Positions 1,269 to 34,317 of a stretch of 64,000 nucleotides of DNA are shown piece by piece. Source of the DNA: Escherichia phage T5; sequence record NC_005859.1; one strand, given 5' to 3'. Numbering within the stretch: the first letter of the stretch is position 1; every line of letters begins with the position of its first letter. The notes beneath the pieces were generated by a model. That model searched no databases, had not been told where the DNA came from, and saw nothing but the letters and a program-made list of their open reading frames with translations. The position numbers and the translations under genes are program-made.

Positions 1269-1297
1269 TTGCAGGATGCCCAAAATCTTGATATAAT
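1269..1297 (+). promoter_or_regulatory. sigma70-type early promoter
   Basis: -35 TTGCAG, 17-bp spacer, extended -10 TGaTATAAT, followed by T5-early-like ATTTATATTGAATTGAGAGA tract. Confidence 0.5.
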
Positions 1298-1794
1298 ATT
1301 TATATTGAATTGAGAGACATTAGTAAAAATTGATTTTGCTAATTTTTCTTGTTTACAATCCGCGATACGGAACAGTTAGGCTGCCCCATTAAGGGTTGTT
1401 TTAACTGTTACTAGTGTTTATATTGCATTAGTTAATATTCAATTAAGTGATCTGTGTACCCTGAATTCGGAAAGGTAAATCCAAACCGTGCATATTTAGC
1501 TCGTTATATAGGCAGAGTTTTATATGGGGGTGCGAACGAAAAGAGCAGCGAATGGCGGCACGTACAGTAGTCACCTACCAATAGGATAGTGAGGACAAAT
1601 AGAATCGGCTTAGCGGCCAATGACCTAGGTTCTATTCTGTATATGAGCGAAGAGAGCACAGCACTGAGATATGATAACTTATTCATATTGTTTGATGATA
1701 ATTGATGTTTACGTAAATAGTAGTAATAGTTGTTCTATTCTTTCTGAATAGTCCTAAAGAAAAGATTTCGATTAACCAACACAGGAGTATTGTT

Positions 1795-5086: not shown

Positions 5087-5303
5087 AAAATGGGAAACAA
5101 GGAAGTTTCCAGTAAAAGAACGTAAAGTTCCTGTTTATGATACTTCGGAGAAGCTATGTAGGGTGGTACCGCACAGATTAGCTGGCATCCCTAACATATC
5201 CGAATGGTTACTTAAACAACGGAGGACTAGCGTATCCCTTCGCATAGGGTTTGAGTTAGATAAAGTATATGCTGAACTTTCTTCTTTGCTCAAAGAATCA
5301 TAA
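5070..5303 (+). CDS. hypothetical small protein
   Basis: ATG overlapping HNH stop, RBS ggagaga; longer upstream start at 4980 would overlap HNH coding. Confidence 0.3.
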   Translation: MTVKNKKWETRKFPVKERKVPVYDTSEKLCRVVPHRLAGIPNISEWLLKQRRTSVSLRIGFELDKVYAELSSLLKES

Positions 5304-5312
5304 AAAATTTAT

Positions 5313-5341
5313 TTGCTTTCAGGAAAATTTTTCTGTATAAT
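5313..5341 (+). promoter_or_regulatory. T5 early promoter, sequence matches PN25
   Basis: -35 TTGCTT 5313-5318, 17-bp spacer, -10 TATAAT 5336-5341, AT-rich upstream and ATAAATTTGAGAGAGGAG downstream; identical to my memory of PN25. Confidence 0.85.
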
Positions 5342-5371
5342 AGATTCATAAATTTGAGAGAGGAGTTAAAT

Positions 5372-8585: not shown

Positions 8586-8728
8586 TACATAACCCTTTGC
8601 TACCCATCTACCATATCGGAATTATAAAGTGGTTATTGACATTTTCGCCGCTTAGGTATATACTATTATCATTCAGTTGAGGGATAGAAAGTTATGGCGA
8701 GGGTAAGCAAAGTTAGTTAAAATTGTAG

Positions 8729-8757
8729 TTGCTAAATGCTTAAATACTTGCTATAAT
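8729..8757 (+). promoter_or_regulatory. sigma70-type promoter between ligase halves
   Basis: -35 TTGCTA, 17-bp spacer, extended -10 TGcTATAAT. Confidence 0.55.
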
Positions 8758-8787
8758 ATTTATATAAATTGATAAGGAAGAAATTTG

Positions 8788-15914: not shown

Positions 15915-16404
15915 TTTCAAATTGCCCGTCTATGCGTTACGGGCGTTTGTATCAATTGAGCAAGAAGGTGATTATTCCGTAATTACAACAAGATATAATA
16001 AATATGTGCTAGATAACAGGAAGTTGCCTGGCACGTTTTCTCAACGTAGGCTTATTCTATTTGAGAAACGGAAAGAATTACCATACAAGCTCTATCCTAT
16101 TAGGGGTAGAATATCAATGTTGTCTCAATTAGTTGGGTCAAAGCGTAACCAATTTATAGATTCTGATGGAAATCTTATTAATTGGAAGAAAACTACGTTC
16201 TATGATGTTGTCACCTCTAAAGTTTTGCATTCAGCTAGAATTTATAATGGAAAATACCAATGCTATGTGGCTAAAGTCCCTTATCCATTTGTATTATCCT
16301 ATGTTCCAGCTTATATAAGCTATATTCTGGTAAATAATAGCCCTGTTATTTATCAAGTCCATCAAGAGGAGCCTGAAATTCCTAGACTTAGAATAAAATT
16401 ATGA
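15907..16404 (+). CDS. hypothetical protein
   Basis: 165-aa ORF coupled between polymerase and helicase; GTG start overlapping polymerase stop. Confidence 0.5.
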   Translation: MLDFKLPVYALRAFVSIEQEGDYSVITTRYNKYVLDNRKLPGTFSQRRLILFEKRKELPYKLYPIRGRISMLSQLVGSKRNQFIDSDGNLINWKKTTFYDVVTSKVLHSARIYNGKYQCYVAKVPYPFVLSYVPAYISYILVNNSPVIYQVHQEEPEIPRLRIKL

Positions 16405-17753
16405 AGGTTGTTATATCTAATAAAGCCTATTTCAAGCCCGATGATGAACTTTGGGATTATTGTAGTAAGCAAACCACTTATCACATAGAGACAATGACTA
16501 GTAAATACCCTATTATGTATAAGAATAGTGGTGTTGTTGCCAAAGAGATTAAGTGGATTCCTATTACGCGTCTGGACTTATTAGATGCTAAAGGAATAAA
16601 ATACGAATTAGTCGATAAACGCACACTAGCACCGGTAGATATACCAAAACCTAAGTTCAAGCTGCGTGAAGAAGATCAGCTTCCAATATACGAAGAATGC
16701 GATGATACCTGTATTATTAATGGTAAGCCTGGGTTTGGTAAAACTATCCTAGCACTTGCACTTGCGTATAAATTTGGCCAGAAAACTTTAGTAATCTGTA
16801 CGAATACATCCATTCGTGAAATGTGGGCGGCAGAAGTTCGTAAATGGTTTGGGTTTGAACCAGGTATCATAGGTTCTGGGAAATACAATATTGATCCGCC
16901 AATTGTAGTCAGTAATATTCAAACAGTGAATAAACATGCGAATAATCTTTCTAAAGTATTCGGTACTGTTATAGTTGATGAAGTTCACCATTGTGTGGCT
17001 ACAACTTTCACTAACTTCCTAGAAATATCATGTGCTCGCTATAAAATTGGACTATCCGGTACACTAAAACGAAAAGACGGTTTACAAGTTATGTTCAAAG
17101 ATTTCTTTGGATATAAGATATTTAGCCCGCCGGTTAATAATACTGTTGCACCTACAATCCATAGGTACTCCGTGCCTGTTGAGCTATCAGGAAACCAAAA
17201 CGTACCGTGGGCATTACGTGCTAACGATGTGTATAATCATCCTGAATATCGAGAGACTATTATAAACCTAGCACATTTATATGTGAATATGGGACATAAA
17301 GTACTCATTGTAAGTGATAGAACAGAGTTAATCCAAACAATACTAGAAGCTCTTACACAGCGTGGTGTTACAACCTATGAAATTATAGGAGCAACCCACT
17401 TAGATGACCGATTAAAAATTCAGGAAGATATAGCAAAAGGCGGGCCGTGTGTGCTTGCAGCAGCTCAAAGCATCTTCTCTGAAGGTATTTCACTTAACGA
17501 GCTGTCTTGTTTAATAATGGGAAGCCTCATTAATAATGAATCTCTCATTGAACAGCTTGCAGGCCGTGTTCAACGTATTGTCGAGGGTAAACTCGACCCA
17601 ATCGTTGTAGATCTAATTATGAAAGGTGGCACTGGGTTAAGGCAGGCTTCTGGACGTATGGCAGTATATCGTAACAACGGGTGGAAAACTATTACTATGA
17701 CTCCGGAGAAAGCAGTTCAATTAGCTAAAATTGCATTTGGCAACAGCTCATAA
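16401..17753 (+). CDS. SF2 helicase (DEAD/DEAH-like), T5 D10-like
   Basis: 450 aa; Walker A GKPGFGKT; Walker B DEVHH; helicase C-terminal region. Confidence 0.8.
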   Translation: MKVVISNKAYFKPDDELWDYCSKQTTYHIETMTSKYPIMYKNSGVVAKEIKWIPITRLDLLDAKGIKYELVDKRTLAPVDIPKPKFKLREEDQLPIYEECDDTCIINGKPGFGKTILALALAYKFGQKTLVICTNTSIREMWAAEVRKWFGFEPGIIGSGKYNIDPPIVVSNIQTVNKHANNLSKVFGTVIVDEVHHCVATTFTNFLEISCARYKIGLSGTLKRKDGLQVMFKDFFGYKIFSPPVNNTVAPTIHRYSVPVELSGNQNVPWALRANDVYNHPEYRETIINLAHLYVNMGHKVLIVSDRTELIQTILEALTQRGVTTYEIIGATHLDDRLKIQEDIAKGGPCVLAAAQSIFSEGISLNELSCLIMGSLINNESLIEQLAGRVQRIVEGKLDPIVVDLIMKGGTGLRQASGRMAVYRNNGWKTITMTPEKAVQLAKIAFGNSS

Positions 17754-17765
17754 ATGATGTATAAT
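17737..17765 (+). promoter_or_regulatory. sigma70-type early promoter
   Basis: -35 TTGGCA, 17-bp spacer, -10 TATAAT, then ATATACATAAATTTGAGAGAG. Confidence 0.55.
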
Positions 17766-17836
17766 ATATACATAAATTTGAGAGAGAAAGTTTCGGATTG
17801 ATAAGAAAGTCCGAAGCAGAAAAATAAAAATTTTAG

Positions 17837-17866
17837 TTGCTAAATTCTCTCGAAATCTAGTATAAT
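17837..17866 (+). promoter_or_regulatory. sigma70-type early promoter (second of a tandem pair)
   Basis: -35 TTGCTA, ~18-bp spacer, -10 TATAAT, then ATATACATAAATTCGAGGAG; near-duplicate of the promoter 100 bp upstream. Confidence 0.55.
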
Positions 17867-17973
17867 ATATACATAAATTCGAGGAGAAAACAAAAATTAA
17901 ATTCTTCGATTATGAAAAGCTATACTTACTAGCTAGAGGAAATTCCGACCTAATTATTAAGCTATTCAAAAGA

Positions 17974-18258
17974 ATGCTTACAGAGCCTGATGCTCACCAA
18001 TTATTGGTCGGTTCCTCATTCATTTTGAATGAATCAACAATAGTTGATAATCCAAATAAATTGTCTAATAGGCAACTGGCAGAATATCTAGGAATTTTAA
18101 GTCTACGAAATTATGCCGAATACAAGTTTACAAACGATCCTAGTTTGGACATACAATATGTTCCAGTATGGATACCACGTTTAGTAATCGACACTAACCC
18201 ACTAATCGCAATTAACAAATCGAAATTAATCTTTAAAGAGGAAATAAAATATGGCTAA
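17974..18258 (+). CDS. hypothetical protein
   Basis: 94-aa ORF; poor codon usage. Confidence 0.4.
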   Translation: MLTEPDAHQLLVGSSFILNESTIVDNPNKLSNRQLAEYLGILSLRNYAEYKFTNDPSLDIQYVPVWIPRLVIDTNPLIAINKSKLIFKEEIKYG

Positions 18259-19024
18259 GTCTTGGGGCGAAACTACTGGCGGTTCTAACGATAAAATCGA
18301 ATTCCTGAAGTTCAACAACGGTATCACTCGTGTTCGTATCGTTTCTGGTGTTCTTCCACGTTATGTCTATTGGCTGACTAATAAAGAGGGTAGCGTAGCT
18401 CCTTTCGAATGTCTCCGTTTTAACCGTGACAAAGAGAGCTTTGTTCGTGGTAAAGCTGATCCGGTTCATGAGTTGGGCTTCTTTGAGAAAGAGCTGGATA
18501 AAGATGGCAATCGTGTACCGCTGAAACCGAAGAAAAACTATATCGCTTTTGTTATCGACCGTTCTGATAACAAACTGAAAGTAATGGAAGTCAAAGCTAC
18601 TATTCTGAAAGGCATCCAGTCTATCATGAAGCAGTTGAATCTGGCAACTCCGTTTGATATTGATATTTCTATCGAGAAAAAAGGCAAAGGTTTCGATACT
18701 GAGTATGATGTACAGCAGATTGCTGCTATGCAGTTCCAGATTAAGCTGCAAGATCCTAACAGTGCAGAATCTAAGCAATATGCTGCAGATGTAGATCTGA
18801 TTGGTGAAGCTATGTGTGACGAAGATGGCGACATCATTAAGTTCGAGAAAGTTCCTTCTCTGGAACAAACCTATCCGGTTCCTACCTATGAAGAGCAGAA
18901 AGAAGCAATTCAAGCCTTCATGGAAGGTCGTGAGAATAAAGATGACGATGCCAAGTCTGGTAACAGCAATGCTGGTTCTCAGAAAGGTATTGACCAGGAA
19001 GCTGCAAGCGATCTGGATGACTAA
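18251..19024 (+). CDS. abundant acidic-tailed protein, possibly ssDNA-binding
   Basis: 257 aa; strong RBS agagga; optimised codons; acidic C-terminus DQEAASDLDD as in many SSBs; function inferred only. Confidence 0.65.
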   Translation: MAKSWGETTGGSNDKIEFLKFNNGITRVRIVSGVLPRYVYWLTNKEGSVAPFECLRFNRDKESFVRGKADPVHELGFFEKELDKDGNRVPLKPKKNYIAFVIDRSDNKLKVMEVKATILKGIQSIMKQLNLATPFDIDISIEKKGKGFDTEYDVQQIAAMQFQIKLQDPNSAESKQYAADVDLIGEAMCDEDGDIIKFEKVPSLEQTYPVPTYEEQKEAIQAFMEGRENKDDDAKSGNSNAGSQKGIDQEAASDLDD

Positions 19025-19030
19025 TAAATA

Positions 19031-19055
19031 GAGGGGCTTCGGCCCCTTTCTTTTT
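19031..19055 (+). terminator. rho-independent terminator
   Basis: aggggc-ttcg-gcccct hairpin followed by T-run. Confidence 0.75.
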
Positions 19056-19060
19056 AATAT

Positions 19061-20038
19061 ATGAGAATATTATTTAGTGCTGATCATCATATCAAACTAG
19101 GACAAGATAAAGTTCCAAAGGAATGGCAGAAGCGTCGCTTCCTGATGCTAGGAGAACGGTTAAATGATATATTCCATAATCATAACTGTGATCTTCATAT
19201 TGCTGGTGGTGATATACTTGATGTTGCCGACCCGTCGTCAGAAGAAATAGAACTGCTTGAACAGTTCATGTCAAGACTTGACCATCCAGGCAAAATTTTT
19301 ACTGGAAATCATGAAATGTTAACTAAAACCATTTCGTGTCTGTATCATTACGCAGGGGTTATTAATAAAGTAACTAGTGGGAAGTGGGAAGTAATTACCA
19401 AACCATATCGTTCCCCTGAATTTGATATTGTTCCGTATGATGAGATCCATAAAGCTAAGTGGAAACCTCCGGTATCAAAACTATGTTTCACGCATGTTCG
19501 TGGTGAAATCCCTCCACATGTAAAACCAGAAATTGATCTAACTAAGTACAACTGTTATGATACTGTAATTGCTGGCGATTTACATTCTTATACTAATAGC
19601 CAGACTATCGGATCTACTAGACTCCTCTACCCAGGGTCTCCATTAACTACATCGTTCCATAGAGAACGCACAAAAGGTACAAATGGTTGCTTTATTATTG
19701 ATACCGACACATTAAAAGTAGAATGGATTGAACTAGGTGATTTACCACAACTGATTCGTAAAACAATCGGAGCAGGTGAAGAGATGGAACCTAGTGATTA
19801 TGATCGTGTAGTCTACGAAGTTACTGGTGACGTTGTTCAATTAAAGTCTATCAAAGACTCTGATTTATTAGATAAGAAGATTAACCATCGAGTTACTAAA
19901 GACGCTAAGTTAAATCTTGTTGATCTTGATATGTTAGGTGAACTTGAACTTTACTTCCGTGAAGTCGAGAAGCTATCTCAAGGCGACATTGATAGAATCT
20001 TGGCTAGAGCTGCGAAATATGTCAAAGATTACAATTAA
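19061..20038 (+). CDS. SbcD/Mre11-like metallophosphoesterase nuclease (T5 D12-like)
   Basis: 325 aa; N-terminal ILFSADHH and GGDILD calcineurin-like motifs. Confidence 0.8.
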   Translation: MRILFSADHHIKLGQDKVPKEWQKRRFLMLGERLNDIFHNHNCDLHIAGGDILDVADPSSEEIELLEQFMSRLDHPGKIFTGNHEMLTKTISCLYHYAGVINKVTSGKWEVITKPYRSPEFDIVPYDEIHKAKWKPPVSKLCFTHVRGEIPPHVKPEIDLTKYNCYDTVIAGDLHSYTNSQTIGSTRLLYPGSPLTTSFHRERTKGTNGCFIIDTDTLKVEWIELGDLPQLIRKTIGAGEEMEPSDYDRVVYEVTGDVVQLKSIKDSDLLDKKINHRVTKDAKLNLVDLDMLGELELYFREVEKLSQGDIDRILARAAKYVKDYN

Positions 20039-33650: not shown

Positions 33651-34261
33651 AGACTTTCCCTCAAGGAAAGTGAAATACCAGAGTAAGTACCATTGTTATT
33701 TAGGGTAGAACCGAAGGAATCTCCGTTCATTAGCTTAGTTCTAAATAAGATACCATTAAAAACTGGTTTTTCACTACCCGTAGTAGTAATAAATAGATCA
33801 GGATACAGGGAAATATTCCATACGTTTCCTGAACTACTAAAATTTGTTATTTTATAAACTTTAGGATGAGTAGATAATTTAAATAAATCCCCAGCTTTTG
33901 GCTGCCCAGTTAGGGTTCCATTAGTATTTAGTATAATTTGAGAACCTTTTTGACCGGCGGGTATGGTAACACTCTTGGTATCACCACGTACTCTAAATGC
34001 TTCATACTGAGGCAGGAGTACATCTAAATAATCTCCAGTTCTTTTATACTCTAAAAGCCTAGAGTCTAGAAATGCATATTCATCCGGGAAAAGTTCCGGG
34101 TATGAGATATTAATTCCCCAGTATTGAGCAGATATTTTAACCTCTTTGACTTTACCATTAGGTAATTCATCACGAATCATAGGGTCGTTATCTACTAAAT
34201 TGACGCTTTCAAAACCTAACCCTGGGTACTCTGGGTTCGTGTATGGATCTGGTAGTCTCAT
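33647..34261 (-). CDS. distal tail protein (Dit, pb9-like)
   Basis: 204 aa, same length as T5 pb9; between tape measure and hub genes. Confidence 0.75.
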   Translation of the reverse strand: MRLPDPYTNPEYPGLGFESVNLVDNDPMIRDELPNGKVKEVKISAQYWGINISYPELFPDEYAFLDSRLLEYKRTGDYLDVLLPQYEAFRVRGDTKSVTIPAGQKGSQIILNTNGTLTGQPKAGDLFKLSTHPKVYKITNFSSSGNVWNISLYPDLFITTTGSEKPVFNGILFRTKLMNGDSFGSTLNNNGTYSGISLSLRESL

Positions 34262-34288
34262 AGTTAATTTCTCCTCTTTAATAACAAT

Positions 34289-34317
34289 ATTATAATAGTA
34301 TTGGAAAATTTTATCAA
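34289..34317 (-). promoter_or_regulatory. sigma70-like promoter upstream of Dit gene
   Basis: minus strand -35 TTGATA, 17-bp spacer, -10 TATAAT, then RBS gaggag. Confidence 0.35.

Follow-up and report, generated by a model that had tools for sequence, protein, structure and literature searches.

Genomic context and anatomy of the promoter region

The window analysed here is a stretch of 64,000 nucleotides from Escherichia phage T5 (record NC_005859.1), and positions refer to it unless stated otherwise. It corresponds to the right 64 kb of the coliphage T5 genome: D11 lies at 76001 in the 121,750-bp IMG/VR copy of T5 and at 18251 in the window, which therefore spans T5 57751-121750. Positions 17000-19100 are 100% identical to the T5 records AY587007 and AY692264, and 441 phage records were matched. 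The gene order in this part is DNA polymerase, a small open reading frame (ORF), the D10 helicase gene (16401-17753), a promoter region, a second small ORF, D11 (18251-19024), which encodes the single-strand DNA-binding protein (SSB), and D12/D13. The promoter region at the D10/D11 junction is the subject of this study. With a probability of about 70%, we read it as two Escherichia coli sigma-70 T5 early promoters in tandem, 101 bp apart and here called P1 and P2, which would feed the second small gene and SSB. The features of the two sites are as follows.

17737-17742, plus strand: P1 -35 hexamer TTGGCA, within the last codons of the D10 helicase gene
17751-17753, plus strand: stop codon of the D10 helicase gene, inside the P1 spacer
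17752-17782, plus strand: repeat core copy 1, 31 nt (family D1 in the repeat search; 87% identity to copy 2)
17760-17765, plus strand: P1 -10 hexamer TATAAT, invariant in all 28 Tequintavirus and Epseptimavirus loci
17772, plus strand: predicted P1 start, the A of CATAAATT, in register with promoter PN25
17814-17836, plus strand: A-rich UP element of P2, GCAGAAAAATAAAAATTTTAG, about -59 to -37, read from the sequence
17837-17842, plus strand: P2 -35 hexamer TTGCTA, which fits the AGTTGCTA -35 context of T5P34 and T5P37
17853-17883, plus strand: repeat core copy 2, 31 nt, from the repeat search (start-to-start spacing from copy 1, 101)
17861-17866, plus strand: P2 -10 hexamer TATAAT, inside the annotated promoter T5P38
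17873, plus strand: predicted P2 start, an A, in register with PN25

The original prediction, made from the sequence of the window, had described two promoters with almost identical -10 and downstream tracts, and this description holds. An exact 20-mer, GTATAATATATACATAAATT, occurs at 17759-17778 and again at 17860-17879, and each copy has a -35 box 17-18 nt before TATAAT. Pattern search of the window located the 19-mer quoted in that prediction, TATAATATATACATAAATT, without mismatch at 17760-17778 and 17861-17879; when up to three mismatches are allowed, seven matches fall in the window (0.15 expected), a number reached by none of 100 shuffled sequences. The interval that had been given for the element, 17737-17866, has endpoints equal to the hits of our consensus scan, but it ends at the P2 -10 and leaves out the P2 downstream tract (17867-17883). 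In the same scan P1 reads TTGGCA-17-TATAAT (17737-17765) and agrees with the consensus at 11 of 12 positions, and P2 reads TTGCTA-18-TATAAT (17837-17866) with agreement at 10 of 12. The A-rich UP element of P2 is kept in Epseptimavirus and Klebsiella phages. Its GAAAAATAAAAATTT block also precedes the -35 of a minus-strand promoter at 34294, presumably PD/E20, where positions 34250-34294 hold the upstream block GGAAAAATAAAAATTTCTTGATA, TATAAT and then AAAGAGGAGAAATTAACTATG.

Membership of the T5 early-promoter family

The site at 5296-5368, which we take to be the classical promoter PN25, reads TCATAAAAAATTTATTTGCTTTCAGGAAAATTTTTCTGTATAATAGATTCATAAATTTGAGAGAGGAGTT. According to Klimuk et al. 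(PMC7472727) the oligonucleotide TATAATAGATTCAT represents positions -12 to +2 of T5 N25, and it sits at window 5336-5349. This register therefore places the probable starts of P1 and P2 at A17772 and A17873. The first 20 transcribed bases of P1 are identical to those of PN25 at 17 positions, and over the 31-nt core P1 agrees with PN25 at 24 of 31 positions and with P2 at 27 of 31 (manual count). Further marks of the PN25-like early class are also present: both sites have the -10 TATAAT and a -35 TTGnnn at 17 +/- 1 nt, and the start-site and initial transcribed tract CATAAATTTGAGAGAG recurs in P1 (the 17 of 20 above) and in P2, as CATAAATT followed by the GAGGAG tract. The tract common to P1 and P2 is recognisable as the -10, start-site and initial transcribed signature of T5 early promoters, of which PN25 is the prototype.

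Part of this was already on the T5 map. Record AY587007 annotates a "repeat c", whose copies 5 and 6 fall inside the putative early promoters T5P31 and T5P33 (PN25) and whose copy 7 (75592-75620, window 17758-17786) is P1. The same record lists P2 as the putative early promoter T5P38 (75656-75725, window 17822-17891), and AY587007, AY692264 and BF23 all carry P2 as a promoter. P2 is thus already known as a prediction, and P1 has been noticed as a repeat and never called a promoter.

Conservation of the two probable promoters

For comparison we used 32 viral-contig loci surrounding D11 homologues, together with eight GenBank phage regions. Both promoters are present in all 22 Tequintavirus and all six Epseptimavirus loci. 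Third codon positions differ between T5 and Epseptimavirus at 24-40% in D10, the small ORF and D11, whereas 17758-17832, a stretch of 75 nt, shows zero or one difference; if sites changed neutrally at about 0.27 each, the probability of no change in 75 sites would be near 1e-10 by our own arithmetic. The spacers diverge almost neutrally (4 of 17 positions in P1; 30% of the interval from -35 to -10 in P2), and the -10 and start regions are unchanged. This pattern of constraint is the one expected of working promoters, and it points to strong purifying selection on both sites. In one Tequintavirus locus (L046) there is a 4-nt ATAT insertion at the position homologous to 17864, between the P2 -10 and the CATAAATT start context, which would shift or weaken P2 there.

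Across Demerecviridae the number of promoters at the helicase-D11 junction ranges from one to three, depending on the lineage. The phages DU_PP_V and L063 have one, P1, which is the sole promoter for the small ORF; two are found in each of Proteus PM135, Pantoea AAS21 and Vibrio PG07; and the Klebsiella T5-like phages carry a tandem series of three, at spacings of 92 and 100 bp. Distances of 92-117 bp between promoters recur in five lineages. In Vibrio IW18 (L071 425-930) a promoter at the helicase end is followed by a complete gene of 134 amino acids (phrog_25412, unknown function) and then by the promoter of the phrog_4258 ORF, the homologue of the small ORF of T5; the phrog_25412 gene occupies the position held in T5 only by a stem-loop. 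Eight of nine Demerecviridae lineages (T5, Epseptimavirus, DU_PP_V, L063, Klebsiella, Pantoea, Proteus PM135 and Vibrio IW18 phages) have a TTGnnA-17/18-TATAAT arrangement across the helicase stop codon, and the TTGnnA block lies within the C-terminal helicase codons in DU_PP_V, PM135, Klebsiella, Pantoea and IW18 phages. The layout persists where D11 is only 31-35% identical to that of T5 and where the sequences themselves differ. Because the promoter spans the stop codon in so many lineages, even at this level of D11 identity, P1 appears as the ancestral, family-wide promoter and not as an extra copy. In some Epseptimaviruses (Salmonella phage Sw2, L004 790-1320; L055 and L058) a gene for an HNH homing endonuclease has been inserted between D10 and P1; there the 3' end of the helicase gene is re-coded, and the old helicase codons that form the P1 -35 persist as non-coding DNA.

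Two further observations concern promoters of this kind in related phages. In Klebsiella K7_rec16 (L006 1152-1360), L066, L067 and Pantoea AAS21 (L068) the last -10 ends 4 nt before the ATG of the ORF, so that RNA made from that promoter would either lack a leader or begin within the start codon. The core of T5P32, GATATAATATTTATATTGAATTGAGAGACA (window 1290-1320), is almost identical to the first of the three Klebsiella helicase-end promoters (L006 1145-1180); one promoter sub-type therefore seems to occur at different genome positions across phages.

The similarity of P1 and P2 had been taken as a sign of promoter duplication. A tandem duplication of a promoter unit of about 100 bp, with near-identity due to common descent or gene conversion, would account for the exact 20-mer common to the two sites, whereas the other T5 early promoters deviate from the P1/P2 19-mer by 2-3 bases in 19, and it would fit the variation from one to three promoters between lineages at a roughly constant period of 92-117 bp. 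The likeness is, however, confined to the 31-nt functional core; the -35 boxes, the spacers, the flanks and the rest of the 101-bp unit are unrelated. PN25, 12 kb away, matches P1 almost as far as P2 does (24 against 27 of 31), the Proteus and Klebsiella tandem cores do not resemble one another, and in Vibrio phage IW18 a whole gene stands between the two promoters. An old duplication would be undetectable because unconstrained positions diverge fast. We therefore consider duplication unlikely; it is not demonstrable from a similarity that amounts to the 31-nt core common to T5 early promoters.

The RNA between the promoters

The segment between the promoters holds one further feature, found by folding and by conservation.

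17790-17817, plus strand: conserved stem-loop, GUUUCGGAUU-N8-AGUCCGAAGC

The stem-loop has a folding energy of -14 kcal/mol (z = -6.25), makes up 97% of the ensemble and shows zero or one difference between T5 and Epseptimavirus. The Klebsiella phages re-form it as CUUCGGA-AAG-UCCGAAG: the right arm is kept, the left arm that pairs with it has moved, the loop has 3 nt rather than 8, and one G-U pair has become G-C through a U-to-C change. Folding of the stretch between the last two promoters gave significant structure in T5, EPS7, Klebsiella, Proteus and Vibrio phages (z -3.5 to -5.1), despite differing sequences. Three of the 22 Tequintavirus loci carry single changes that disrupt the stem, with compensation in none. 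No Rfam family reached the gathering score in the P1 leader, where the best hit had 18.9 bits against a threshold of 100 and lay on the opposite strand.

Several roles were considered for this segment and rejected. The stem-loop is not an intrinsic terminator giving a short P1 RNA, because CAGAAAAAUAAAAA follows it and not a U-run, and the terminator scan finds nothing in the interval. It is also a poor candidate for the operator of a dimeric protein: the spacing of the arms changes from 8 to 3 nt in the Klebsiella phages with the pairing kept, which favours a nucleic-acid hairpin. A small peptide gene between the promoters (TTG 17798, 9 codons; ATT 17797, 22 codons) was dismissed on three counts, as nearly every difference between T5 and Epseptimavirus in its variable part is non-synonymous, an additional A shifts the frame in EPS7, and the Klebsiella phage reads another frame. 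Hiding of the ribosome-binding site of the ORF in P1 transcripts failed as well. A 129-nt fold pairs UUCUCUCGAA with UUCGAGGAGAA, but the segment alone has z = -1.1, and in EPS7 the complementary bases are not kept (CCTCCC against GATGAGAGA) and the pairing is absent from the fold. A hairpin over the ribosome-binding site in the P2 leader (-6.1 kcal/mol, z = -1.5) is not significant. Our best guess is that the stem-loop is an RNA-level element of the leader of P1 and read-through transcripts.

The structured leader bears on the other suggestion of the original prediction, that the two promoters serve differential regulation instead of dosage. They could fall into separate early sub-classes, so that, for instance, one would be silenced at the early-to-late switch while the other stayed active, or they could give two mRNA forms, with a structured leader of 124 nt and a leader of 23 nt, that are translated or degraded differently. 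The highly conserved and very stable stem-loop of the P1 leader, the structured RNA between promoters in five phage groups, the differences between P1 and P2 in the UP element and the -35 box, and the weak ATT start of the first gene (below) are all in keeping with such a role. Three results speak against it. P1 and P2 have the same -10, discriminator and start region, which Klimuk et al. (PMC7472727) connect with the class-specific control exerted by gpT5.026; the hiding of the ribosome-binding site failed in both T5 and EPS7; and the stem lacks compensatory changes. We regard differential regulation as unlikely.

In a related reading, the P1 transcribed tract and the stem-loop would form a dedicated RNA control element with a structure conserved across Demerecviridae. 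Two mRNA forms with different fates would then, together with an AUU start and an overlap with D11, set or autoregulate the ratio and amount of the 120-amino-acid protein and SSB. This reading is loosely analogous to the case of T4 gene 32 protein, which controls its own mRNA through a structured leader, and we hold it to be distinctly improbable.

The small gene ahead of D11

Downstream of P2 lie the ribosome-binding site and the coding sequence of the small gene.

17881-17886, plus strand: Shine-Dalgarno sequence GAGGAG of the small ORF, 9 nt upstream of the ATT, read from the sequence
17896-18258, plus strand: small ORF, 120 codons, phrog_4258, ATT start (the annotated 94-amino-acid form begins at ATG 17974)

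The description of this gene as a weak ORF of 94 amino acids has to be revised: the listed ORF (17974-18258) exists, but it is part of a conserved protein of 120 amino acids with a probable ATT start in T5. The T5 translation from the ATT aligns with positions 2-120 of the 120 in the phrog_4258 profile (E = 1.8e-61), the codons between the ATT and the first ATG corresponding to profile positions 2-26, and relatives annotate the ORF at 117-120 amino acids. All 22 Tequintavirus loci carry ATT at the start position; six Epseptimavirus loci and DU_PP_V have ATG there, L063 has GTG, and the remaining lineages examined have ATG. EPS7, for instance, has ATG where T5 and BF23 carry the ATT at 17896. 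Within Tequintavirus, codons 2-26 have five synonymous polymorphisms and one non-synonymous, against an expected synonymous fraction of 0.21 (P about 0.002 by our own binomial arithmetic), and the rest of the ORF has a similar ratio, 19:7. Because of the start position in relatives, the alignment to phrog_4258, the selection on codons 2-26 and the GAGGAG 9 nt upstream, the gene most likely starts at AUU. The 94-amino-acid form is listed in all five Tequintavirus records inspected (two of T5, and BF23, IrisVonRoten and HASG4), and we suggest that the gene be re-annotated as 120 amino acids with an ATT start. Regarding its function, no Pfam family was found, and phrog_4258 is of unknown function.

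The annotated phrog_4258 start looks wrong in two other phages. In Proteus PM135 (L069 1021) a downstream ATG was chosen that removes the conserved N-terminus MIFFDYEKIY, and in Pantoea AAS21 (L068 913) the start is a TTG inside the -35 box of the promoter.

D11 and the end of the transcription unit

The unit ends with the SSB gene and a terminator.

18251-19024, plus strand: D11, single-strand DNA-binding protein, with a start that overlaps the end of the small ORF (ATGGCTAA)
19030-19058, plus strand: intrinsic terminator, AGAGGGGC-UUCG-GCCCCUUU and a U-run, found by scan and fold, at most six bases after D11

D11 matches phrog_1607, "single strand DNA binding protein", with E = 8e-106, and about 900 Demerecviridae genomes contain it. 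The terminator reads AGAGGGGCUUCGGCCCCUUU and then a U-run, with a GGGGC-UUCG-GCCCC stem, and the ATG of D12 follows at 19061. It is annotated in phage HASG4 and absent from the annotation of AY587007. With a strong terminator directly after D11, P1 and P2 would lead a short unit of two genes that yields mainly SSB.

Interpretation

We favour two tandem early promoters that act together on the SSB unit. P1 would straddle the helicase stop codon, with its -35 at 17737, its -10 at 17760 and its start at 17772, and P2, with its A-rich UP element, would yield a 23-nt leader that carries the ribosome-binding site. RNA polymerase protects about -55 to +20, and a spacing of 101 bp would therefore allow simultaneous occupancy of P1 and P2; the footprints would be kept apart, both sites could be loaded at once, and the stem-loop may serve as a linker. 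The outputs of P1 and P2 and the read-through from the upstream genes from pol to D10 would sum on the unit of the 120-amino-acid protein and SSB. The terminator after D11 would make SSB high relative to the D12/D13 nuclease genes, which would depend on read-through. From the anatomy, family membership by sequence, purifying selection and terminator described above we infer activity of both promoters in vivo, their exact starts, additive output and a purpose in SSB dosage. The suggestion that the pair boosts expression is thus partly upheld: both sites lie ahead of the small ORF and D11, and the terminator fits a design for high SSB, but their activity in vivo is deduced from the sequence.

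A number of points weigh against this interpretation. P1 is called a promoter in none of the three annotated records checked (AY587007, AY692264 and BF23). A literature search on T5-like phages found no map of transcription starts covering the D10-D11 junction, and a search with the classical promoter names (PH207, PN26, K28a/b) gave nothing relevant to this junction. The accessible text of Klimuk et al. (PMC7472727) describes primer extension for 19 in vitro promoters and some intergenic regions, and the only promoters it names are P11, PH22, Ppol, P15A, PG25 and PJ5; RNA-seq of the Tequintavirus Bas33 at 20 min is reported at the gene level only (PMC13250531). Upstream of the P1 -35 there is only AGCTAAAATTGCAT, inside coding sequence, and no obvious A/T-rich UP element. 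Consensus look-alikes are frequent in the AT-rich T5 DNA (27 sites in 6 kb against 20.8 +/- 4.5 in shuffled sequence), so that consensus matching is weak evidence here. The conservation of the P1 -35 is ambiguous because this hexamer is constrained by the D10 coding sequence. Transcription from P1 through P2 could interfere with P2 instead of adding to it. Finally, promoter function alone leaves the most conserved block, the start region and stem-loop, unexplained. The real support for both promoters lies in the T5-family signature and the conservation rather than the consensus score.

One alternative is that only P2 works, and that P1 is a "repeat c" core which, placed in coding sequence, binds polymerase poorly or not at all and is conserved for another reason, for example in an RNA leader. 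The marking of P1 as a repeat in AY587007, the annotation of P2 alone in AY692264 and BF23, the lack of a clear UP element at P1 and the frequency of look-alikes would all agree with it. Yet P1 has the better core, 11 of 12 with the optimal 17-nt spacer, and its -10 and downstream tract are invariant even though they form no part of the helicase coding sequence. The same -35/17-18/-10 layout is found at the helicase stop in lineages with D11 about 31-35% identical, and DU_PP_V and L063 use P1 as the single promoter of the ORF. Taken together, an inactive P1 is very doubtful, and we retain two tandem promoters as the preferred reading.

On this reading SSB belongs to a compact unit with two promoters, two genes and one terminator, and one probable promoter (P1) is added to the T5 map, apparently ancestral for the SSB unit across the phage family. 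The understanding of phage transcription is unchanged by the finding. T5 early promoters are common in expression vectors, and a conserved tandem layout with defined spacing may interest vector designers.

Elsewhere in the window, about 470 nt (1309-1780) between T5P32 and the gene for the origin-binding protein have no annotated gene and look less AT-rich on reading. A promoter-like TTGATT-18-TACAAT lies about 55 bp after T5P32, and Rfam gave no match in 1309-1780.

Comparison with known systems

Tandem early promoters are a familiar kind of element, in T5 itself and elsewhere, and only the AUU start and the conserved stem-loop are slightly out of the ordinary here. The closest likeness is with PN25 (T5P33, "repeat c copy 6"), which shares TATAAT, the CATAAATT start context and, in the transcribed region, a tract rich in purines (TTGAGAGAG) that also serves as the ribosome-binding site. 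In the PN25 cassette the ribosome-binding site lies at +9 to +18 and the ATG at +25, and the layout of P2 and the small ORF matches. PN25 differs in being a single promoter with an A/T-rich upstream region, whereas the P1 -35 lies inside a gene and no ORF follows the tract of P1 that resembles a ribosome-binding site; the transcribed tract of P2 is TTCGAGGAG, and the start codon behind it is ATT. PN25 is used in expression vectors of the pQE type, and its transcribed tract was reportedly found by Kammerer et al. in 1986 to affect late steps of initiation.

Genes initiated at AUU include infC and pcnB of E. coli. The small ORF resembles them in having an in-frame AUU behind a good ribosome-binding site where relatives have AUG. 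It differs in that autoregulation by initiation factor 3 has no support here, and in that AUU initiation is deduced from conservation only.

Within T5, T5P36 and T5P37 (window 8606-8768, between the halves of the ligase gene) are also annotated in AY587007 as putative early promoters, on the same strand, 93 bp apart and before one gene. Their cores, TTGACA/TATACT in T5P36 and TTGCTA/TATAAT in T5P37, are dissimilar, and no obvious stem-loop was seen between them on reading of the sequence, which was not folded. Outside T5, the A1-A2-A3 promoters of T7 and the rrn P1-P2 promoters of E. coli are likewise strong sigma-70 promoters in series that serve one high-output unit. They are about 100 bp apart, and the two rrn promoters are regulated differently from each other. 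There is no sequence relationship with the T5 pair, which in contrast has cores identical over 20 nt and a conserved stem-loop between them.

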